The position numbers and the translations under genes are program-made. 64,000 nucleotides of DNA, taken from positions 1-64,000 of the IMG/VR virus record IMGVR_UViG_3300025162_000043, one strand, 5' to 3'. The DNA comes from a virus. The notes beneath the pieces are model-generated. The model was not told where the DNA came from. It searched no databases and saw only the letters and a list, made by a program, of their open reading frames with translations. Of the stretch, positions 3,036 to 62,358 are shown piece after piece (the first letter of the stretch is position 1; each line of letters starts with the position of its first letter).

Positions 3036-3251
3036 CTAAAAAACTACGGTCTTATTCTCTTTAGCCAAATAATGCCCAAGGCTCTTCATGCGGCGTTCGA
3101 CTTGTTCGAGCAAATACTCTGCTCGTTCCTTGTCTGCTTCGTAATCATCTTCGCCCCATCCATAACTTTTGGTGTAGACCGAGATCATAGTAGCATAATC
3201 AAAATTAACGAATTCCTTGAGCGGCTTATGCAAGGCTTCAAGAGTTTTCAT
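3036..3251 (-). CDS. Hypothetical protein
   Basis: 71-aa ORF; ATG abuts the mini-IS left end. Confidence 0.6.
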   Translation of the reverse strand: MKTLEALHKPLKEFVNFDYATMISVYTKSYGWGEDDYEADKERAEYLLEQVERRMKSLGHYLAKENKTVVF

Positions 3252-3319
3252 ATTTTCTATCGTTGCGGAAACCCCTATCCCTTCAGGGTCCCTACGCCTT
3301 TAGGCTAGGGGTTGTTGAC
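3252..3319 (+). mobile_element. 68-nt non-autonomous IS200/IS605 derivative (fused left and right ends)
   Basis: Follows TTCAT; CGTTGCGGAAACCCC left end as at 8396; CCTACGCCTTTAGGCTAGGGGTTGTTGAC right end as in the tnpB element. Confidence 0.8.
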
Positions 3320-4866: not shown

Positions 4867-4944
4867 TGGTGGCACCGAAGGGATTCGAACCCTCACTGTT
4901 TCGGGTTTGGGCCGAACGCCTCCTACCAATTGGGCTACAGTGCC
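4867..4944 (-). tRNA. tRNA-Leu(CAA), short variable arm, C33
   Basis: Cloverleaf, GGTTCGAATCC T-arm, TTCGG-CCCAAAC-CCGAA anticodon arm, encoded CCA. Confidence 0.8.
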
Positions 4945-4953
4945 ATTTATTTC

Positions 4954-5001
4954 TGGTGGTCTCGCAACAAATCACCACTACTACTTTTACATCAAGGGAC
5001 C
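4954..5001 (-). pseudogene. Internally deleted tRNA remnant
   Basis: GGTCCC..GAGACCACCA acceptor-like ends, only 48 nt, no anticodon arm. Confidence 0.45.
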
Positions 5002-5007
5002 ATAATT

Positions 5008-5081
5008 TGGAGCATGTGGAGGTAGTCGAAACCCCATCTCAAGTGTGGAAAACTCGCATAATGCCGTTATACTACACATGC
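5008..5081 (-). tRNA. tRNA-Gly(TCC)
   Basis: GCATGTG acceptor, loop TTTCCAC, ends TCCA. Confidence 0.85.
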
Positions 5082-5087
5082 ACAAAA

Positions 5088-5161
5088 GGGAGGACCAGGA
5101 TGGTTACGCTCCATCGCCACAACTCTACCAGGGTCGTATTCTGCTATTAAACTACAAGTCC
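5088..5161 (-). tRNA. Degenerate tRNA, anticodon GGT (Thr?)
   Basis: D-arm and loop CTGGTAG present; atypical T-loop; ends CCC. Confidence 0.5.
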
Positions 5162-5162
5162 G

Positions 5163-5237
5163 TGGAGCATCGTGAGGATTTCGAAACCTCGGCCTTCACA
5201 TTGGGAATGTGACGTTCTGCCTCTGAACTAACGATGC
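5163..5237 (-). tRNA. tRNA-Gly(CCC)
   Basis: TCACA-TTCCCAA-TGTGA arm, ends TCCA. Confidence 0.9.
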
Positions 5238-5735: not shown

Positions 5736-6033
5736 ATGAACTACCCCTACGCTAAAGACGTAGGTGTTTCCGACCCAATCAACTGCTTCGTTATTTCTAA
5801 CGAAGTCTTATGTCAAGACAGACGGCTTATACGGTCGTTCCGACCGTTATCTGGTTTCTTAACCAGAAAATTATTTTTTTGATTGTGTTGTGAGACTTGG
5901 TTATCGTCTCTTATTCAATCATATTGCCAATATACACTATGCCACAAAAAAGTCAACAACAAAGTTTAATTATATTTGCGGGTCGCATTCATCTCCTTGG
6001 CTGAAGACCAAGGAGTTTTCTGCTCCCTAAAAG
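5736..6033 (-). mobile_element. Non-autonomous IS200/IS605 derivative retaining an omegaRNA-like 3' end
   Basis: Same left end as 4543-4825 after TTTAT; ACGGTCGGAACGACCGT hairpin; CCTACGTCTTTAGCGTAGGGGTAGTTCAT right end. Confidence 0.8.
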
Positions 6034-7470: not shown

Positions 7471-8395
7471 AAGCATCCTCCACAAACAATTCTTCGACTG
7501 CCCGCACAAATTCTTTCTTTGCCTGTTTCCACCGACCGTCAGAACCTGGGAGACGAAGAATTCGACTATCCTTATCTGCGGAAATATCCCGCAGTTTATG
7601 TTCGTCAATCAACCGGACAAGCAGCTTTTTCCCAGCCTCCTGTCCGTGTTTTCTGATTTCTTTTAGATCTGGTCCTATGCATGGCATATTCTACCTCTTT
7701 CTCAAATGCAAACCGCAAGCATTCAATCATGCGGATTGCACCAATTGAACGATGCTTTTGCATAATTTTGCGGAAGTCATCCACTATTTGTTTGTCATGT
7801 TCCAATTGATTCATTATTATCTTCTTTCCAAGTTAATCCGTCAAAATTGGCAATGTTTATTTCGTATCTCCCATCATCGTTACTCATTGAAGTAAGAAAT
7901 GGAGAATTACAACAACCACACGCATTAACTATAATTTTGTATTGTCGAGAAAGTTTACTTAACTCTCTTACAAATGCTTTTACTTCGTCTTCTGCTAGTT
8001 CTTTTACTTCGTCTTGTTTTAATATTTTCATATTTTTAATTTTTTCATACTTCTCTAACTCTTTTTCCGCCCAGGGCGTCAGAATATCACCGTTATTCTT
8101 CATTTGCCTCAGTCCCTCTCCCCGCGACGTAAATGGGTGGCTAAGCCTACCTTTGAGGGTGGGCCACTCCGTATTATAAGATTTGTTCATTGACAATATC
8201 TCTATGAAAGTGATCAAACGCTTCGTTTATTGCCTCTGTCTTGGCCATCTCATCATTCAAATTTCCAATTACATGACGTTCAGCGTGCCACTCTCGTTCC
8301 AGACCATCCATCTCTTGAATATGACATGCCCATGCCCGCTCAAGGTTCAAATCCTTATCAGGGTTTCGTTTGTAACAAATGAAGTCAATTTTCAT
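7457..8395 (-). CDS. Run of four small hypothetical ORFs (7457-7687, 7605-7814, 7795-8190, 8174-8395)
   Basis: Tightly overlapping minus-strand ORFs; no recognisable motifs. Confidence 0.5.
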
Positions 8396-8791
8396 ATTTT
8401 TCCTTTCGTTGCGGAAACCCCGATGGCTTTAGCCTCGGGGAGGAGCAACGAAATATAATTAATAATTTCTGTTGACATTCTTCTTAATTCCTGTTATACA
8501 TATCACAGTTCTTTGATACATGGTTTGGATAGTAGAAAATAATTGCTTCTATCCAGTAAAATCAATCAAGCATCGTTTTGTGAATAGACCAGAAGTCACT
8601 CCGCTTTGCGGAGGAACCGTTATGCAGGTCTTTGACTCACAATCAACATCCTCCTCGTTATCCGTTAAGGATAAGCTGGAAGGCAGGCCACGGTCAATTG
8701 GCCAATCGTCTGTAAATCTTTCTTGAGTTATGTTAAGCATAAGCATTAGAGTCTGGCAAGCCCCGACCCTTCAGGGTCGCGGGTAGTTGAC
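8396..8791 (+). mobile_element. 396-nt tnpB-less IS200/IS605 cassette: left end + sigma70 promoter + omegaRNA
   Basis: After TTCAT; TTGACA-N17-TATACA; scaffold homologous to the tnpB 3' end; ends GGGTAGTTGAC; near-identical to 46752-47147. Confidence 0.88.
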
Positions 8792-9102
8792 AATCTTCCA
8801 GTACCATTACAATCAGTGCATTTAACACTGGGATTAGTGCTAAAAGAATAATATCCATTTCCCGAACACTTACAACACTTAGGACTGACATAAAAACGTT
8901 GCAACTGTTCAACATGAATATATCGTGCGATGAATTGGTCCACAGTCTTAATTTCGACAGGAACAAACGTTGATTTCCAATGATTTTTCACCATGAGTTC
9001 CAGCATTTCAGCGTGTGAAGGTTTGTGGTCAATGAATACGGACTCTGACGCCCACTCATTCCACACTTCGTAAATTTTATGTTTCTTTGATAATTTAATC
9101 AT
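8746..9102 (-). CDS. Hypothetical protein with DnaJ-like CxxCxGxG zinc finger; C-terminal 14 aa derived from the IS cassette
   Basis: CCKCSGNG...CTDCNGTG; tail STTRDPEGSGLARL. Confidence 0.65.
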   Translation of the reverse strand: MIKLSKKHKIYEVWNEWASESVFIDHKPSHAEMLELMVKNHWKSTFVPVEIKTVDQFIARYIHVEQLQRFYVSPKCCKCSGNGYYSFSTNPSVKCTDCNGTGRLSTTRDPEGSGLARL

Positions 9103-30556: not shown

Positions 30557-30606
30557 ATCAACAACCCCTACCCTAAAGGGACAGGGGCTTCCTTGCTCCC
30601 AAGGAT
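30557..30606 (-). mobile_element. 50-nt single-hairpin IS200/IS605 derivative
   Basis: TTCAC|ATCCTTGGGAGCAAGGAAGCCCCTGTCCCTTTAGGGTAGGGGTTGTTGAT. Confidence 0.7.
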
Positions 30607-30613
30607 GTGAAAT

Positions 30614-31013
30614 TGGTGGACCTGCCGAAGATCTGCCCTTCGGGTCTCTATAATAGAAAACTTACAATACTACAAGTTTAGTTCGTTGGTGATTTCTGCC
30701 GTTTACTTACGAACACCTGAGCGGCATATCCATACACTGGTATGTCAGCAGTAATATGATTGGAACCATATCAAGTTTCACCCGCTATAGAGCCGTGGAT
30801 TTTGTAGCGAGTATCCTTATCCACGTCCGAATTATGCCAAAGCCAACTCGAAAACTGACTCCTCAACATCGTTAAGCGACATCTCAAAATCAATTTCTGC
30901 AATCTTATTTAAGCGATTGTCATCTGTCTTCGGTCAGATTTTATGCTGTCCATCCGACCAACCAGCACTTGCATTATAAGCCATCAATCATAGATCGAAT
31001 CTATTACAGGCCC
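30614..31013 (-). ncRNA. ssrA: tmRNA
   Basis: GGGCCTG/CAGGTCC-ACCA acceptor with G3.U70, GATTCGA motif, pk1-like region, tag ORF 30921-30832 ending ELALA*, TTGACA promoter upstream. Confidence 0.92.
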
Positions 31014-31060
31014 ATTTCAATAAATATACCAGACCCCATCAAAGGTGTCAAGTTTTTTCG

Positions 31061-31128
31061 GTCAACAACCCCTAGGTCGGAATTCCTCCCCAAGGCTAAA
31101 GCCGTTGGGGCTTCCTTCCTCCAAGTAA
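31061..31128 (-). mobile_element. 68-nt IS200/IS605 derivative inserted in a gene 3' end
   Basis: After TTCAC; hairpin with TTTAG loop; ends GTTGTTGAC; excision restores ...GIFTEKT*. Confidence 0.78.
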
Positions 31129-31511
31129 GTGAAAATCCCCTTCTCCTCAGAATACATAACATCTTTGATAACTATCTTGTCAACTTTAACCTCTGACCCA
31201 TTCTCAAAATATACATCCCCCTTAATAGTAAACTGAGTTTCGTGAATACTGTCAATATCCCCCTCCTTTACCACAAGCCTTATGGCTAATGTATCATCAC
31301 TCCTAAATGCCAGACTTAATACATCAACTTTAATGTGATCAAAATACATGCTCACACAAGGACGCTTATCTAACTTCTGATTGAACTCTTCCACGGCCTC
31401 ACGTAATATATAAGGATGAAACTCGTATTGCTTAAATACAGGCGGAGTCACAATAGGATGATAATAATTAATCCCCCGATCCATTATCACACTCTCAGAA
31501 TCAAATCTCAT
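31062..31511 (-). CDS. Hypothetical protein, C-terminus IS-derived
   Basis: ORF track. Confidence 0.55.
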   Translation of the reverse strand: MRFDSESVIMDRGINYYHPIVTPPVFKQYEFHPYILREAVEEFNQKLDKRPCVSMYFDHIKVDVLSLAFRSDDTLAIRLVVKEGDIDSIHETQFTIKGDVYFENGSEVKVDKIVIKDVMYSEEKGIFTYLEEGSPNGFSLGEEFRPRGC

Positions 31512-32196: not shown

Positions 32197-32629
32197 ATGA
32201 ATAACTATAACAAGAACGAAGAGGAAATTATAACCCAATGCCTAATGGTCTCTTCTTGCTGTGGTGCTGCCCCATTAGGATGCTTGGAAGAAAATATATG
32301 CGGACATATGATCGGAATATGTTCGGAATGTCACCAAGAAACTAACTTCGAGAAAGATACGGAAGATGAAAATAGTCGCTAAATATATCGGAAAAGTAAA
32401 CGAATTCAACCAACCCCCAGCCCTATCCTATGTCACATTGAAAAATGTAGACACCAATGAGGAAATTAATACACATGCCCTATCCCAAATGCTCCTGGAT
32501 GCAGGAGTCGATTACGTGAAATGTGAATTCGAAGTCCTCGTCATGGAAAATGATGAGGGAAAACATAAAGCAATAACTAAAGAATTAAAATCCCATAATA
32601 ATACCCCAACTGATAATTTTGATATTTGA
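32197..32629 (+). CDS. Two small hypothetical ORFs (32197-32382 Cys-rich; 32366-32629)
   Basis: SSCCGA...GICSEC; overlapping ORFs. Confidence 0.55.
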
Positions 32630-32632
32630 TAT

Positions 32633-33964
32633 GTCAACTACTCCTAGCCTAAAGGCATAGGGGCTTGTAATACTTCCTTACTAGCAGAAGATTTACATAC
32701 AATTGGCGAATTGACTGTCGCCTGCCCATAAGTCAGATTCGAGGTCTGTGATACGGGAAGTTTGGATAATTTTGCTATATTTATACTAGCATTGATATCC
32801 GCATCATAAACAAGACCGTTTTTAGAATAAAACCTACAACCATGTCTTTCACCTTCAATCTTACCGCTTACGCAGTCAGTTTGAGAAGTATAAGATGGGC
32901 GAACGAAAGTTATGGTTTTACCCATATTCTCTGCCTTATATGTTATTATTCTACGGAGTTCAAACATCGGTACTTGACTAATGTTTCTCTTATTTTGATA
33001 TCTATTTTTCTTTTTCTTTATTCCTTTGAGATTTTCTAATACAATGGTGTCGGCATTAGTTTTTAATACTTCATTGGCAATTAAATGAGTTTGATTTTTA
33101 TTTTGGTTATGCTCTTTATGACGCAGTTTGTTAAGATGTTTTTTGGATGATTTATTACTTTTAGATTTAAGACAATCTTTTAAATGTCTTAACTTACGTT
33201 TATTACCATTAAATTTTTTATCAATAATTAATCTACCATCTGATGTGGCGGCACTACGTCTAATTCCTATATCAACCCCCAATGCTAATTTCTGGTTTAA
33301 CATTTCTTTTGGTTTATTTTCAAAACAAAAAGAAATAAACAATTTTCCATTATTTTCGTAAATAAGCGGATCTTTATATTGATATTTATCCAATAGTTTC
33401 TTAAGTTGTGGATAAACAACAAATTTAAAAGACTGTCGTTTGTTATTAGTGGTAATTCGGATGGAATATTTATCTTTTTTATCTTGAGAATAAAGTCGTT
33501 TATCAAGACGCATTGATAAATTCTTCTTAATAATTGGAAATTTTAATTTGTGTTTATTAGATTTTGTGGATTTGTAACTGGAAAGACACTCCTGTTCCGC
33601 TTTAATAATTACTTGAGATGGAATGTTTGAATATTGTTTTCGAATATTATTATAAACTTTAGAATGGAGAATTATCAGCGAATTCTTTTTTTCAGTAAAT
33701 TGAAGTTGGGAAGCGAAGTTAAATACTATTTTATGCATATCAAGAATTGATTTCAGCGAATCAAAATCTTCTTCATTTTTCATTAAAAGTTGAGTATTAT
33801 AACTTAGCACACTAATATATATCATTGAAATTATCAAAACATCAAATTATTTCAAAATAAATGATTTTTCTTTTGTTGACATTTGGAAAGGATGTGTTAA
33901 CATTAAGAATGGTCGCAATTCCTCCGCTACCCTAAAGGGATAGCGGTTTCCTTGCTCCAAAAAT
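32633..33964 (-). mobile_element. IS200/IS605-family element carrying tnpB only (IS1341-like)
   Basis: TTCAT|ATTTTTGGAGC left end with hairpin; right end GCCTTTAGGCTAGGAGTAGTTGAC. Confidence 0.9.
32644..33837 (-). CDS. tnpB: RNA-guided nuclease TnpB (start uncertain)
   Basis: RuvC motifs LGVDIG, IVLENL, DADINASINI intact; YTSQT motif; degenerate Zn finger. Confidence 0.92.
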   Translation of the reverse strand: MIISMIYISVLSYNTQLLMKNEEDFDSLKSILDMHKIVFNFASQLQFTEKKNSLIILHSKVYNNIRKQYSNIPSQVIIKAEQECLSSYKSTKSNKHKLKFPIIKKNLSMRLDKRLYSQDKKDKYSIRITTNNKRQSFKFVVYPQLKKLLDKYQYKDPLIYENNGKLFISFCFENKPKEMLNQKLALGVDIGIRRSAATSDGRLIIDKKFNGNKRKLRHLKDCLKSKSNKSSKKHLNKLRHKEHNQNKNQTHLIANEVLKTNADTIVLENLKGIKKKKNRYQNKRNISQVPMFELRRIITYKAENMGKTITFVRPSYTSQTDCVSGKIEGERHGCRFYSKNGLVYDADINASINIAKLSKLPVSQTSNLTYGQATVNSPIVCKSSASKEVLQAPMPLG

Positions 33965-34198
33965 ATGAATATGCCGTTCAAATCACCCCAAGAAGCTATC
34001 GATGCCTGTGAAGCCGAATCCCTACGAGCCTGGCAAGAATACCTCGTAACTAATAAACTCGACCCCGAGAAATCTCCCAAAGCCTGCGCAGCCGCTCATC
34101 GTGTGTTCCACGCAGGTTATATCGCAGGCGCTAAATGGGTCAGCGGTGCCATCATCGAAAAAATGATGGCAAATGACAATCCAAACTTAATATGGTAA
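33965..34198 (+). CDS. Hypothetical protein
   Basis: ATG abuts the IS left end. Confidence 0.6.
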   Translation: MNMPFKSPQEAIDACEAESLRAWQEYLVTNKLDPEKSPKACAAAHRVFHAGYIAGAKWVSGAIIEKMMANDNPNLIW

Positions 34199-43907: not shown

Positions 43908-46277
43908 ATGATAAATAAAAATCTTTGTGGTAAAATGAGAACGAAAGACAATCCTTATGAAGTCTGGCAATCCCTTGATGGGAGTTGGACATGGAAAGTT
44001 TTGAAAAAGTATCAAACTCCCGATAAAGAAATGAGCAATTCATTCGCTCGGTGGTTCTGTTATGTGACATCTCCCTTCTGTCCGTTCGGTGAAATGGGAG
44101 ATACTTACATTAATGAAATTAAAAGTCAAGCCGTCAAAATCTTCATTTGACAATTCGGTGAAACGTGCTAGGTTAAATATATGAACGCTAAACAATTCCG
44201 AATCGTAAAACTTGCCGTAGTGGTAAGAGAAAAAGATGCTGAATCAATTGCCGACCAACTGTGCAATATTTCATGCGACTTTGGCATCTATACTATGAGT
44301 GCCACGGAGAGCATTCCTACTCATGCAGAATGGAAAGAGATATTAGAGAACGTGCCTGAAGAAATACTCGGTGAAACAGATGAACAACAACGGCGGGATG
44401 AAAAGCATGGGCTTTATGGTGATAAACAAGATATTAGTAATTAACAATTAAACAAAACAAAATAAAATGAACGCAAAAACAGCAACGAAACTAAATGAAT
44501 TGCAAAATGCAGCAATTCCATTGGCCCTGGTAATCAATAGCCGGACACTTTGCATCCTCACTGGCAAAGTACATAAGTCAACAGCCAAGGCAATAACTGC
44601 CGCATTGACTAGAGTGCTTCCCGCAACAATTGCCAATCGGATTATCTATGGCGCAAAGCATCGGGAATTTGTAGCGTTGCCCGAAGTCGTTGAAATGTCG
44701 TGCCCTATGTTTTACTGGCTAACTTCTGAAGATACATACAAATTGGCACTGCCAGAGATTACTGCCATAATCAATCAACAGAATACGGAAACCCTCAATG
44801 CCTATGAAACATACAGACTGGCGTGTGAACAGGGAGTAGCCGTACCCCCTGAGAAATAACTATCAACTACAACCCCAGGGCTAAAACCCTTGGGGTTTCC
44901 CTCCTTCAAAATATGAAACAAGTAACTTGTAAATCTGGATTAAAAGGATGGCAGGGCCATTTGCGAGAGAATTATGCATCCTTCAATGAGTTTGAATATT
45001 TCTCGGAGCAAAATGGACTTCATGCCAGGCTTGGGTATAAAACCGCTTTAGCGGCTTGGCACAATAATCCAAAAATTCAAGGCTCGGTGAATCCCAGTGA
45101 TTATCGGAGGGTTCGGTGAAAACAATATACTTTCAATTAACTCTCAATGTTGCATTTGACCCGAATGGAACTACTCCTGCTGAATTGAAAGCAAATCTAT
45201 TACAAGTTATTAAGGATGCCACAAGTAACGGCACACTGACAGGAGAGACCCCCGCAACCGTGAAGCAGTATGCTGTTTCGGTGAATCAACTTAAAAAATG
45301 ATGTTATGTCATATTTTGCCCATCTTAAAGCGAACTGGAAAGTTGCCGTGAAATGTTTGGCTTTATCCACCTTTCATTTTATTCATGGTATTGTTCCTTG
45401 CAAATATACCGAGCATGAATATTATGGGTTTAATTTCAAAAAAGATAGTTGACATTCTTCCCCCGAACTGTTATTCTTAGTGGCATGAAAAACAAATGGA
45501 TATTAAGAAATAGAATGTCAACACAGGAATTTGATAGTTTCCCCTATGCTTTCCGTAATATGTTCGCTATTGTGAAAAAGAGTGCAGAGACAGGAAAGCT
45601 AGAGGAAACAATTAAAAGCATAAGAATCATTAGTCCTCAAAAAGATAGTTATGGAGACCCACGAAAATATAACTATACTGCCGCGTGTGAAATGGCTAAA
45701 GCAAGCGGACTTCTGAGTTCTGATGATCAAATCAATTCAAAGGAATTCAAACGAAAATGAAACAAATCACTTAACGTGAACTAAAATTTTATCCATTGCC
45801 CCGCTTATGCGGGGTTTTTTATTGCCCACCGAATATAAGAAATACTGGCCAGTAAATTTTATTTCAAACGCACTTGACATTTTCCGAAAATGTGGTTTAT
45901 TCGTGCTATGACAAAAATTGAAGCCATAGCATATCTTCGCAAGAAAGTACTTTTGGAAAAGAAAGCTGCACTCAAAGAACAATTCAATGTTGCTCGGCGG
46001 GAAACCGAAGAAACAATGAGAGAACTTGAAGAAATAGAGAAAAAGAATTTGACAAATCAAGAAGATGATATAAAATAATAATATGACTAACAAAAAAAGA
46101 AATTCATTGCCGACGGTGAAACAATCCATTGCTCACATTGAAGCTACAGACTATAAGTTAATGCACCGCAAACGAGGATTGTATATCTTTCGCAGTGAGA
46201 CCCGTCCATTACATGCCAGAGAATTAGCATTCACCATGCGAGAATTGCGGGATGCTCACCGAGGAATTGGATTTTAA
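43908..46277 (+). CDS. Plus-strand series of small hypothetical genes (43908-44150, 44181-44444, 44467-44859, 44913-45119, 45116-45301, 45485-45760, 45908-46078, 46083-46277)
   Basis: ORF track; several leaderless promoters; terminator at 45798-45822. Confidence 0.65.
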
Positions 46278-48576
46278 GACACAATTTCGTAAGCATCTTT
46301 CGGCAATCCATAATAAGTATCCCCGTCATAGGTTTCAAAGAAAACAGGATTCAACGTCTCTACGTTGAGTTCCTGCCATTTTCGTAAGGTAATATCCCAT
46401 GTCTCATCCAATTTCGGTTTGTACACCTCAACCAATATATCTCTGAGAATTCTTATTTTAGTCATATTGATATATACTGGCCAGTAAATGTTTACGTATC
46501 CATTTTCGGTGAGTAAACAAAAAAAGACCCCATCACTTGATGGAGTCTTCGGCAATAAAAAGAAACTATTTAGAAATTGGACGAGTAAGTATGATTATAC
46601 GAAAGACTGTTTCGCCCTCAAGGAGTAATTCCTGATTATCATTGATAAGTTGTACAATCTTTTTACCTTCAATCAAATCACCCTTTTTAATCATCTTGTT
46701 CTCATCGTATGTCATTTCTACACTGGGCACCCAAATTTGAGTTAGTTTCATATTTTTCCTTTCGTTGCGGAAACCCCGATGGCTTTAGCCTCGGGGAGGA
46801 GCAACGAAATATAATTAATAATTTCTGTTGACATTCTTCTTAATTCCTGTTATACATATCACAGTTCTTTGATACATGGTTTGGATAGTAGAAAATAATT
46901 GCTTCTATCCAGTAAAATCAATCAAGCATCGTTTTGTGAATAGACCAGAAGGCACTCCGCTTGCGGAGGAACCGTTATGTAGGGTCTTTGACTCACAATC
47001 AACATCCTCCTCATTATCCGTTAAGGATAAACTGGAAGGCAGGCCACGGTCAATTGGCCAACCGTCTGTAAATCTTTCTTGAATTATGTTAAGCATAAGC
47101 ATTAGAGTCTGGCAAGCCCCGACCCTTCAGGGTCGCGGGTAGTTGACATTTTTACACCCTTACCCACCAATTGTAATGCATCATCGCTTTCAATGGCGAT
47201 CAATGTCCAATCGCATATATCCCCGCCAGTATCACTAAGACCATCAAGATCCCGCAATCGGAAATACTCCATGTCAAAACAAGGATGCTCCATTGCAATT
47301 CTACGAATGGATTTTAATGCTTTTATCATCTCAGCTTCGGCAGATAGATTTGTCATAATTCAGTATATTCCACCGAGACAGAGGAAGGAGTAGCTAAATA
47401 TGGAGAAGCACAATATTTCTTCTTAGCTTTCTTCTCAGCCGCATTGTGAGAGCCAGCTTTGATATATCCCCTCTCAAGCCCATTTACATAAACAATAAAG
47501 GTTTTCATATTATTTTTAATCGCCGCTGTCAATTTTGATATATGCCTCTGCAAGATAGATATAACGACATCCTTCTACCTTAGTGAATGCCCCAAGACTA
47601 CAGCCAGCATTCCCCTTTGGTAACATTTTGGCAATCTCACTTCTCCATTGCAAGGAAGTACGAGACGAAACATTGTCATAAGTGGTATCATCTGGATTGC
47701 CTTTAACATATACCAAGTAATTGAAATGGTCATAAGACCGACCAAGCGGTTTACTTCCATTCTCAACGATTGCTATGTGAATAGACTCAAGGTTAATTGT
47801 CATATTGTTATTTAATCTACAAATTCATGATCGGCAAATACTTTTTCAATAGGTTTCAGCTCTGCCTTTGCTTTTGGTTCTGGACTTTTTGTGGCGAACA
47901 ATCCTACTCTCCATCCTAATTTTAACAATGCCTTATCAAGTGCATCGTCATAATCATATGCTTCCACTTCAAAAGAATTGTTATTGTCTTTATAGTTATA
48001 TACAGTAAATGTTCTCATATCTATACAATACACCGCTTGCCTAAATTGTCAAATTCTTTTTCTGATTATTTTTATCGTTCGGGCCAACCATTGAGGATGA
48101 CAGCCACAATCATAATAAGGATAGCCACAACGAGGACAACATTCCCCACAAATTCTTATGTGAGTCATAAATGAGTCAGTTACTTTATCTCCTTCGGGAA
48201 ACATAGATATACGTCTCCATCGGTATTTCTAACAATAAAAGAATTGTCATTGGGAAGATATACAATTTCAGAAATAGTAATAACATCACCCGTACTAATT
48301 GTAATTTCATCTCCTGGCTTCAGATTCTTTCTCCAATCTTTACAATTGTCTGAAACCGTTGAATTCTTAGCTGTCTTTATTTTCATATTGTTGACTCAAC
48401 GCCTGATATATTTTTCGGGTATATTCCGCTAAATTCATAAATTGTTCTTCCGTATAAGCCATAGACTTCTCTTCTATTTCTCTTTGTTTATTCTCCGCAA
48501 TCATAGCCTGCATCTGACATTCAGAATAAAATAAAAGTTCTGCTATGGCCATCTCGGTTGTATTGTCTATAATCAT
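46274..48576 (-). CDS. Series of small hypothetical genes (46274-46465, 46566-46751, 47102-47356, 47353-47508, 47516-47803, 47812-48018, 48180-48386, 48367-48576)
   Basis: ORF track; duplicated 45-nt promoter at ~48015 and ~48573. Confidence 0.55.
46752..47147 (+). mobile_element. Second copy of the 396-nt promoter+omegaRNA cassette
   Basis: Near-identical to 8396-8791; after TTCAT; ends GTAGTTGAC. Confidence 0.88.
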
Positions 48577-60651: not shown

Positions 60652-62358
60652 CTATGTCAAAATTTCAGCATCTTCATACCAATTATTATTTCTCCATTTA
60701 AGTGCCTCGGTAATAGTTGAAATTCCCGGTTCTATACCTTCAATATGCCAAGTTTTAATGGATGGATTTAACATTTTAAGATACCGAGCATCTTTAACTT
60801 CATTACTCAAATCAATACTATATAATTCATAATTTCCTCTTTTTTCGAGTAATTTATGGGGCAGTGAGTTCATTGCTCTTTCAACACCAACTTTCCTCAG
60901 CAATTCCCGACGTACCTCTGTATTAGTTTCCTTTAATATCATTTCACCAGAAATTTCATGGCTCGGAGTCATTACATATTCTTTTTTCATAACAACTCCA
61001 TTCAACGCATAAATCTCATTATCTCCATTATAAGATAATGCTGGACCATTTTCGCAATGTAAGCCACTATTATTCTTCTTAATTATTGTTGGTGGCTGAC
61101 AGACGATGCATAATTCATCAAGAGGAAAAACCATTCCATAGTCCTGACAATTTTTAAATGTATCATATTCGGGTGGATAGTTAATACCGCATTCATTTCT
61201 AAAGAATTCATAGAAAGAGAACCATCCTGCCCAGAATTGGCAATCAAAGTAAGGATACACGAAAGTCAACTCTTGTCCATTTAACTTAACTTGTTCCCCA
61301 ACTTGTGAATCAACTTGTGACTCAACTTGTGACCGAACCTGCGAATAAACTTGTGATCTAACTTGTGAATCAACTTGTGACTCAACTTGTGACCGAACCT
61401 GTGAATTAACTTGTGATCTAACTTGTGAATTAACGTGTAGCCTAACTTGCGAATAAATTTGTGACCTAACGTGTGATCCCACTTGTAACCATACTTGTGA
61501 ATTAACTTGTGAACCAACTTGTGACCTAATTTGTTCCCCAACTTGTGAATTAACTTGTGAACCAACTTGTGACTGAACCTGTGAATAAACTTGTGACCAA
61601 ACTTGTGGATTAACTTGTGATGCAACCTGTGACCTAACTTGTGACCCAAATTCATAATGAATTTGCGATACAACTTGTGAATTAACTTGTGACCAAACTT
61701 GTGAACTAACTTGTGACCAAACTTGTGACCCAACTTGCAATGCAACTTGTGACCAAACTTGTGAATTAACTTGTGATGCAACTTGTGAATTAACTTGTTC
61801 CCTAACTTGTGATCTAACTTGTGAACTAACTTGTGAACTAACTTGTGAATTAACTTGTTCCCTAACTTGTTCCCTAACTTGTGAACTAACTTGTGAACTA
61901 ACTTGTGAATTAACTTGTTCCCTAACTTGTGACCAAACTTGTGAATCAACTTGCGAATAAACTTGTTCCCTAACTTGTGACCCAACTTGCAATGCAACTT
62001 GTGACCCAACTTGTGACCAAACTCGTGAATAAACTTGTGACTCAACTTGTGAATTAACTTGTGAACTAACTTGTGAATAAACTTGTGACCAAACTTGTGG
62101 TCTGACTTGCGATTTGATTTGTTCTTGAGATTTATTAAAAAGTAATTTAACAATACTGACCGCAATCCAGCATTTTAATGGAGAATCAAGAATTACGACT
62201 GGAGCCACGGATTTTTTTAAGATGTTTTTTTGAAACAGACTAAAATCAATGATGGCATTTTCCAGAGATTTCGGTTTAATAGTCAGTCCCTTTTCTGTCC
62301 AAAGTTTAACATATTCTGGAAACTTGTTGATTTGTAACTGTGATAAAGTGTTAATCAT
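60652..62358 (-). CDS. DUF6745-like protein with a long (xSQV)n tetrapeptide repeat
   Basis: C-terminal LHCENGPA..Y.LNGV, NTEVRRE, PS...HIEG; ~270-aa repeat. Confidence 0.75.
   Translation of the reverse strand: MINTLSQLQINKFPEYVKLWTEKGLTIKPKSLENAIIDFSLFQKNILKKSVAPVVILDSPLKCWIAVSIVKLLFNKSQEQIKSQVRPQVWSQVYSQVSSQVNSQVESQVYSRVWSQVGSQVALQVGSQVREQVYSQVDSQVWSQVREQVNSQVSSQVSSQVREQVREQVNSQVSSQVSSQVRSQVREQVNSQVASQVNSQVWSQVALQVGSQVWSQVSSQVWSQVNSQVVSQIHYEFGSQVRSQVASQVNPQVWSQVYSQVQSQVGSQVNSQVGEQIRSQVGSQVNSQVWLQVGSHVRSQIYSQVRLHVNSQVRSQVNSQVRSQVESQVDSQVRSQVYSQVRSQVESQVDSQVGEQVKLNGQELTFVYPYFDCQFWAGWFSFYEFFRNECGINYPPEYDTFKNCQDYGMVFPLDELCIVCQPPTIIKKNNSGLHCENGPALSYNGDNEIYALNGVVMKKEYVMTPSHEISGEMILKETNTEVRRELLRKVGVERAMNSLPHKLLEKRGNYELYSIDLSNEVKDARYLKMLNPSIKTWHIEGIEPGISTITEALKWRNNNWYEDAEILT
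61290..62110 (-). repeat. 12-nt tandem repeat array (core AACTTGTGA on +), roughly 68 units
   Basis: Seen directly; encodes xSQV. Confidence 0.95.

Follow-up and report, generated by a model that had tools for sequence, protein, structure and literature searches.

TnpB is the ancestor of Cas12, and TnpB-driven retention is established for elements that carry the tnpB gene. In ISDra2 the TAM, which is also the transposon target, is TTGAT. In the ISDra2 TnpB–omegaRNA system (reRNA; 8BF8, 8EXA, 8H1J), a ~400-aa protein with the RuvC triad D-E-D works with an omegaRNA that is formed from the 3′ end of tnpB plus the right end (RE) of the element, contains a pseudoknot with its 3′ end beside the guide and takes the flanking DNA as guide. 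Protein-less relatives of such elements are the PATE-like elements of Geobacillus stearothermophilus (PMC10055086), and according to Meers et al. (2023, PMC10055086) omegaRNAs that need TnpB in trans are often encoded by PATEs; no experimental characterisation of this trans use was found in that paper. In freshwater phages, gp49 of the Microcystis cyanophage Mic1 is a TnpB-like immediate-early gene whose disruption was accompanied by lower infectivity (PMC11237433). Cutting of an element-free allele in a co-infecting relative, followed by copying of the element through repair, is known from the free-standing homing endonucleases of T4-like phages, SegF/SegB, which cause marker exclusion (reviewed in PMC13565253).

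The DNA analysed here, referred to as the window, comprises positions 1-64,000 of an IMG/VR virus record 78 kb long. The record carries inverted terminal repeats and has a CheckV completeness of 22%, i.e. it is a fragment of a roughly 350-kb genome, and sequencing runs that contain this stretch come from several studies of freshwater and lake metagenomes. Within the window lie one tnpB-bearing element and two 396-nt copies of an element without tnpB, which an initial annotation had proposed to be stand-alone promoter–omegaRNA cassettes supplying guides to the resident TnpB. The two copies (cassettes A and B, Table 1) are as described there, bounded by TTCAT and GTAGTTGAC. As their guides differ, use by TnpB in trans is the most economical reading, and we put at about 65% the probability that A and B are protein-less, PATE-like derivatives of an IS200/IS605 element whose omegaRNA is used by TnpB in trans to cut cassette-free sites.

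The cassettes resemble the G. stearothermophilus elements in being protein-less and in having left-end (LE) and RE hairpins of the type found in an IS family with TnpB; like those elements, they would be mobilised in trans. Those elements lie on a bacterial chromosome, whereas the cassettes are in a phage and have a conserved sigma70-type promoter of their own. Two further differences are a leader of ~135 nt, common to cassettes with different omegaRNA halves, and selection on the structure after gene loss, documented here by compensatory changes. The likeness to Mic1 gp49 is that of a TnpB-like gene carried by a freshwater phage, and the report on that gene describes neither an omegaRNA nor gene-less cassettes.

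Table 1 Features of the two cassettes and the resident tnpB element (coordinates are those of the window)
Feature	Position	Strand	Remarks
Cassette A	8396-8791	+	Gene-less IS200/IS605-type (PATE-like) element: LE, promoter, leader, omegaRNA scaffold, RE
TTCAT left of A, TAM-like target motif	8391-8395	+	Reverse complement is ATGAA, the start of minus-strand gene 8174-8395
Left-end nested hairpin of A	8407-8450	+	CGTTGC..CCCCGATGGC TTTA GCCTCGGGG..GCAACG
Sigma70-like promoter of A	8472-8500	+	-35 TTGACA 8472-8477; 17-nt spacer with TGn; -10 TATACA 8495-8500
Leader module of A	8501-8634	+	Conserved; hairpins 8527-8554 and 8599-8613 (CTCCG..CGGAG)
omegaRNA scaffold of A	8635-8791	+	Covariance model R1 63.5 bits, E 2.6e-16, model positions 1-137
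P1 core stem of A	8658-8663 with 8669-8674	+	
P2 of A	8686-8703	+	Loop GTCAA 8693-8697
P3 of A		+	Enlarged loop
RE hairpin of A	8761-8783	+	
Terminal TTGAC of A	8787-8791	+	Pairs with P2 loop
Predicted guide of A	8792-8811	+	AATCTTCCAGTACCATTACA; antisense to 3′ end of gene 8746-9102
Cassette B	46752-47147	+	98% identical to A; promoter 46828-46856; omegaRNA scaffold 46991-47147
TTCAT left of B	46747-46751	+	Reverse complement is ATGAA, the start of gene 46566-46751
Predicted guide of B	47148-47167	+	ATTTTTACACCCTTACCCAC
tnpB-bearing element	32633-33964	-	1332 nt; LE after TTCAT (33965-33969); RE ends TTGAC (32633-32637)
tnpB	32644-33837	-	Up to 397 aa; Pfam PF07282 (Cas12f1-like_TNB) 1.9e-12
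omegaRNA scaffold of tnpB element	32633-32772	-	Almost wholly within tnpB frame; covariance model 134.6 bits
Predicted guide of tnpB element	32613-32632	-	ATATCAAATATCAAAATTAT

Over their 396 nt, A and B differ by 6 substitutions and 2 one-base indels. Their identity starts directly after TTCAT and stops exactly at GTAGTTGAC, which is also the 3′ terminus of the tnpB element, and their flanks are unrelated. As had been claimed, TTCAT immediately precedes the LE of each of the three window elements; the same motif was found at more than 20 independent insertions of related elements, and the flanks show no duplication. ISDra2 is alike in having a 5-nt TAM that is the transposon target, TTCAT being TAM-like by prediction. 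Imperfect hairpins lie sub-terminally at both ends of the cassette, which have no inverted repeats, and both hairpins covary among relatives. In its TTCAT, its two end hairpins and its terminal TTGAC, each cassette agrees with the tnpB element and with 15 relatives linked to tnpB. The LE type of cassette A is shared with an element carrying tnpA and tnpB in a related virus (G003, below) and with loci L016/L017. The only ORF in the cassette encodes 68 aa and is not conserved, and similarity to TnpB is confined to its last ~22 codons.

Both cassettes are reversed and placed exactly before the start codons of genes 8174-8395 and 46566-46751. Removal of the cassettes in silico gives the junctions ...AGATTATGAAA... 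and ...AAAATATGAAA..., at both of which the TGA stop of the upstream gene overlaps the ATG of the next gene (ATGA). This overlap is split by the cassette and therefore the upstream genes, 8746-9102 (-) and 47102-47356 (-), run into the RE; although these genes are unrelated, they share a 14-residue C-terminal tail, STTRDPEGSGLARL, read from the RE reverse strand. On the other side, the reverse complement of the LE puts AAAGGAAAAAT ahead of the downstream ATG, with AAAGGA 6 nt before it, and this looks like a usable ribosome-binding site. Because of where the insertions sit, the predicted guides, whose length was taken from known TnpB systems, lie antisense to the final codons of the genes upstream. 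The three guide sequences are those of the initial annotation and differ from one another. The P1–P2 linker of cassette A, CTGGAAG (8676-8682), is complementary to guide bases 4-10, CTTCCAG (8795-8801), and the two are paired in the MFE fold. As cassette B has no such match it is probably due to chance, yet it could mask the guide of A.

The relationship of the cassettes to tnpB is clearest in a 39-mer, found at 8682-8720 and 47038-47076 (1 mismatch), which shares 34 of its 39 bases with positions 32688-32726 (minus strand) of the tnpB element; no match was obtained with any of 100 shuffled sequences. Read in the tnpB frame, the cassette version gives QATVNWPIVCKS and the tnpB version QATVNSPIVCKS. 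Since 4 of the 5 base changes are synonymous, the origin of the cassette lies in a diverged tnpB, at its 3′ end. In the cassette, stop codons close this frame upstream of the 39-mer. The parent tnpB was absent among the tnpB-linked loci compared.

The resident TnpB scores 47.6 bits with PF07282 (cut-off 26.3) and stays below the cut-off with PF01385 (OrfB_IS605; 21.7 bits, cut-off 30.5). Its true start is probably a few codons inside the annotated frame, and its stop codon is 11 nt from the end of the RE. The protein aligns to TnpB-like and Cas12f chains in the PDB, with which its RuvC triad, D189/E268/D347, is aligned, and the triad is invariant across 8 TnpB homologues (the alignment was made without L023, which has an in-frame stop). 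A nuclease-dead repressor of the TldR type was considered and rejected, because the protein is full length and the catalytic triad is kept. In contrast to ISDra2 TnpB, to which it is distantly related (E 1.6e-5), the resident TnpB has no canonical zinc-finger cysteines, and the cassette RNA lies apart from the gene. The absence of the CxxC...CxxC cysteines is common to its clade, in which TSQxD....G...G.R.G.R is conserved instead.

The promoter begins 76 nt into the cassette, and the spacer ends in TGT, i.e. with a TG two bases before the -10 box; a strict consensus scanner passed over it, as its -10 hexamer ends in A. The claim that the gene-less copies keep a sigma70 promoter holds well beyond the window. 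TTGAC(A/T), a gap of 16 or 17 nt and TATAnn were present in all 11 gene-less cassettes examined, which belong to several lineages, with TATACA, TATATA, TATATT, TATAAT, TATAGT and TATTTT as -10 hexamers. L040, in the related record G005, has a different LE type and does not have the shared leader, and its P2 is the same as in the window cassettes. L041/L042 and L046 have another LE type, with pseudoknots ATCAA:TTGAT or GTCAT:GTGAC. As it is found in these separate lineages, the layout LE–promoter–omegaRNA–RE has arisen or been kept repeatedly. The promoter was probably inherited from that of a tnpB gene.

Two metatranscriptome runs of one freshwater study contained contigs of 156-191 nt that match cassette variants at 90-99% identity, one of them a variant of the second cassette type (type 2). 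They span about 8516 to 8688-8702, from ~16 nt past the -10 box to P2, and stop short of the RE and guide; the flanks were uncovered in both runs. As assembled contigs of a different strain from a single study, in which carry-over of DNA is possible, they are a weak hint that cassette RNA is expressed.

The structure of the scaffold was derived from tnpB-linked elements. Fifteen tnpB-linked 3′ ends, from loci with 51-84% protein identity to the resident TnpB, were fetched and gave four helices in RNAalifold, to which the GTCAA:TTGAC pairing was added as a pseudoknot before pairs were counted. In these 15 relatives 96.9% of cells were paired, as against 31-45% in slid controls, and 25 of 37 pairs had changed on both sides, a count that none of 500 shuffles attained. 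The difference between GGCCA/TGGCC in the cassettes and GGCGA/TCGCC in the tnpB element, which had been noted as compensatory, is real: this helix, P2, covaries at 3 of its 5 pairs in the 15 relatives. The pairing suggested between the GTCAA loop and the terminal TTGAC covaries at two pairs, with GTCAC/GTGAC in L020 and A-U replacing the terminal G-C in L021 and L024. These counts identify the tnpB-linked scaffold as a genuine structured RNA. On the RE hairpin, selection may act at the DNA level, through TnpA; P1, P2 and P3 lie inside the element, which argues for RNA.

A covariance model (R1) built from the tnpB-linked sequences only, with no cassette included, matched the cassettes over its full length (positions 1-137), with 65.1 bits and E 9.1e-17 for B. 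This E value, about 1e-16 as for A, and the shared 39-mer bear out the alignment of the cassette scaffold with the 3′ end of tnpB. In the alignment to R1 the cassettes keep 9 of 11 pairs of P1, 5 of 5 of P2, 3 of 3 of P3a, 4 of 5 of P3b and the pseudoknot; the RE stem seems lost only because a one-base bulge shifts the register. Identity to the tnpB-linked scaffolds is 50-64%, and 58% to the resident one (aligned core), which is not the closest lineage. At this low overall identity the cassettes retain 30 of 34 bases that do not vary among 16 tnpB-linked scaffolds, so invariant positions have been kept preferentially; of the four exceptions, two make up a compensated pair (A-U to C-G).

Pairs have also changed on both sides within the gene-less lineage. 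Among six type-1 gene-less copies there are 6 such pairs (in P1, P2 and the RE stem), 98.2% of cells are paired and none of 500 shuffles did as well. P1 is TTATCC/GGATAA in the window, TTGCCC/GGGCAA in G001/G004 and TTATTC/GAATAA in L048, and P2 is GGCCA/TGGCC in the window and GGCTC/GAGCC in L048; in L052 a different 8-bp stem replaces P1. These double changes support selection for the fold after the loss of tnpB. They are not a proof of it, since only six copies were available and the structure was named from the same sequences. In type-2 cassettes the P3 hairpin is lost and P2 is weakened, so some copies are probably decaying.

One alternative is that the cassettes are inert relics left by deletions in tnpB elements, moved or carried along, in which promoter and scaffold survive because the copies are young. 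The 98% identity of the window copies, the damage to P3 and P2 in type-2 copies and the presence in the window of clearly decayed fossils (30557-30658 and 5736-5889) and of stubs with LE and RE only all agree with this. It is nevertheless improbable, as it leaves aside the 6 compensated pairs of the gene-less lineage, the 98.2% of named-pair cells that are paired in six copies, the 30 of 34 invariant bases kept at ~60% overall identity, the promoter in 11 of 11 cassettes of several lineages with varied -10 hexamers, and the coverage of the cassette by RNA-library contigs.

A 68-nt stub, consisting of an LE fragment and the RE hairpin, lies at 3252-3319 (+) after TTCAT (3247-3251), ends in TTGAC and precedes a minus-strand start codon; it is mirrored near 74769-74805 of the full record and appears to lie inside the inverted terminal repeat. 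Other miniature or decayed relatives of the family are at 44860-44912 (-), about which position there is a single-hairpin stub after TTCAT, and at 31060-31130 (-), 30557-30658 (-) and 5736-5889 (-). They include one remnant of 20.7 bits and two fossils that follow TTCAC; with the omegaRNA model one of these fossils still reaches 26.8 bits, GGCAGG..CCAAT being preserved and the loop missing.

The leader raises a second alternative. Its first ~80 nt are 98% identical between type-1 and type-2 cassettes and are the part most conserved between the two. Most of the module is found again in L046, each version being joined to a different omegaRNA 3′ half. This recurrence (8501-8634, 46857-46990, L046, L033/L036), with an LE in L046 that differs too, suggests an exchange of modules. 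The leader hairpin CTCCG..CGGAG is also present in the otherwise different L041/L042. No counterpart of the ~135-nt leader was found in tnpB-linked elements, where a comparison of cassette bases 1-295 with all tnpB loci by blastn and tblastx returned the LE hairpin only. The cassette RNA might have another job, as an antisense regulator acting on the upstream gene at its 3′ end, a decoy for TnpB or a small RNA active through its leader. Conservation of the leader, the compensatory change in its hairpin (CTCCG/CGGAG in the window, CTCCA/TGGAG in L048) and a transcript that runs antisense into genes 8746-9102 and 47102-47356 would all fit. Against this, the leader has no match in Rfam, the selected features of the 3′ half (P1, P2, pseudoknot, invariant bases) are those of a TnpB scaffold, none of which an antisense or leader-only role needs, and the resident TnpB keeps its triad and is not a TldR-like repressor. 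We thus consider another job for the RNA quite improbable. Two Rfam matches to the cassette at permissive thresholds, to HEARO (19.7 bits against a gathering score of 83, on the wrong strand) and to a CRISPR repeat (E 3.3), were rejected as chance.

That the cassettes serve to encode the 68-aa peptide (8520-8726 and 46876-47082, +) can be practically dismissed: the frame is open in both window copies despite the two one-base indels, a deletion and an insertion 21 nt apart that cancel, but its ATG has no preceding ribosome-binding site, the start in G001/G004 is ATA followed by a frameshift, the type-2 frame stops after 29 codons and the homologous 39-mer is read in a different frame in tnpB.

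Outside the present record, gene-less copies were obtained from three virus records and from three metagenome contigs, so that the family occupies at least 7 different sites (four virus records and three metagenome contigs); the GenBank phage collection gave no match to the cassette. Related phages were searched for empty sites, as had been suggested, and none was found. The flanks of A were absent from five related virus records, the proteins flanking A and B had no relatives in IMG/VR, and neither the right flank of A against JGI metagenome contigs nor the right flanks of both against IMG/VR gave a match. In DNA runs X9 and X10 the flanks and pieces of the cassette were present and no contig bridged the site. 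As near-identical records may have been missing from the material searched, this failure does not argue that empty sites are absent.

The supply of TnpB and TnpA was examined in the record and in two viruses with the same element family, G003, a complete 368-kb record with direct terminal repeats, and G005, a 304-kb record that is 89% complete. One TnpB was counted in the 78-kb record, as against 10 TnpB hits in G003 and 7 in G005. The idea of a single resident TnpB hence stands within the record and is unproven for the phage, because the record holds ~22% of the genome and the near-complete relatives have 7-10 hits. For the same reasons, and with a cassette scaffold which is 58% identical to that of the resident element and up to 64% to others, the proposal that one nuclease serves all guides is unsupported. 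No Y1 TnpA was found in the 78-kb record, about a fifth of the genome. G003 has one homologue, L044 (G003:321910-322194), beside an LE of the cassette type that reads CGTTGCGGAAACCCC...GGGGAGGAGCAACGA. Its open frame is 102 aa and starts at position 29 of the Pfam model, so it looks N-terminally truncated. As this is the only Y1 TnpA homologue found in G003, one may ask, if it is truncated, by what means the many elements of that genome are moved.

Other features of the window are a tRNA gene cluster at 4867-5237 (-), in which ARAGORN found Leu-CAA, Gly-TCC and Gly-CCC and Rfam a fourth, weak tRNA at 5091-5161; tRNAs were the only Rfam matches at gathering threshold in the whole window. Many AAGAAATACTGGCCAGTAAAT-type palindromic motifs and promoter-like blocks containing TTGTCAAA occur from 35.6 to 56.4 kb (35600-56440), and a long run of 12-nt periodicity, starting near 61203, extends over 61203-61850.

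The family to which the cassettes belong is an IS200/IS605-type insertion sequence carrying TnpB, common in a group of freshwater jumbo phages, and each cassette keeps four things: the hairpin ends for Y1 TnpA, the sigma70-type promoter, the conserved leader and the full omegaRNA scaffold. If the cassettes are indeed used by TnpB in trans, the following sequence of events can be envisaged. As the scaffold ends at the RE, transcription would enter the flank and so provide a site-specific guide. The RNA would be loaded onto TnpB from another element of the same phage, either the resident protein (32644-33837) or one encoded outside the record, in the other four fifths of the genome. Cleavage by this complex would fall on TTCAT plus the flank, i.e. 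the cassette-free version of the same site, whether left by excision through TnpA or present in a co-infecting relative, and recombinational repair from the cassette-bearing copy would restore or spread the cassette. The outcome would be functionally analogous to that of SegF/SegB, except that those enzymes recognise fixed sites by protein–DNA contacts, whereas recognition here would be by RNA, with the target set by the position of the cassette.

The anatomy, the family membership, selection for the fold after gene loss, the retention of the promoter, the RuvC triad and the existence of several insertion sites have direct support. Loading in trans, cleavage and homing we infer from sequence. 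Use by the resident TnpB is assumed, because the cassette scaffold is 58% identical to the resident's and at most 64% to any, and, with the empty site not found, homing and phage–phage competition are likewise things we infer. The trans-guide interpretation has thus held as regards tnpB-less derivatives of the same family which have a promoter, a selected full scaffold and differing guides, and is unsupported as regards one nuclease. The trans idea is not new, having already been stated for bacterial PATEs, and the cassettes are a well-documented variant and not a new type of system. What seems new, as far as was checked, is the documentation of a conserved promoter, of a leader shared across omegaRNA halves and of compensatory evolution after gene loss, and the phage setting.

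A bolder proposal is that, in this group of jumbo phages, the promoter–leader–omegaRNA cassettes form a modular family of guide-RNA genes, each transcribed separately, several of which simultaneously arm the TnpBs of the phage to cut cassette-free alleles of co-infecting relatives at many loci, a kind of RNA-guided marker exclusion. We regard this as unlikely; if true, it would represent a natural stage of guide genes uncoupled from the nuclease gene, as in CRISPR-Cas12.

The cassettes touch on how guide RNAs split from the nuclease gene and on whether one nuclease serves many guides in nature, for which they are a clean natural test case, with a promoter of their own, a fold selected without the nuclease gene and the same layout in several lineages. 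If they are not used in trans, they are well-preserved miniature transposons. If they are, homing guided by RNA would be shown to occur between the genomes of phages, and a compact nuclease whose guide cassettes are modular by nature would become available.
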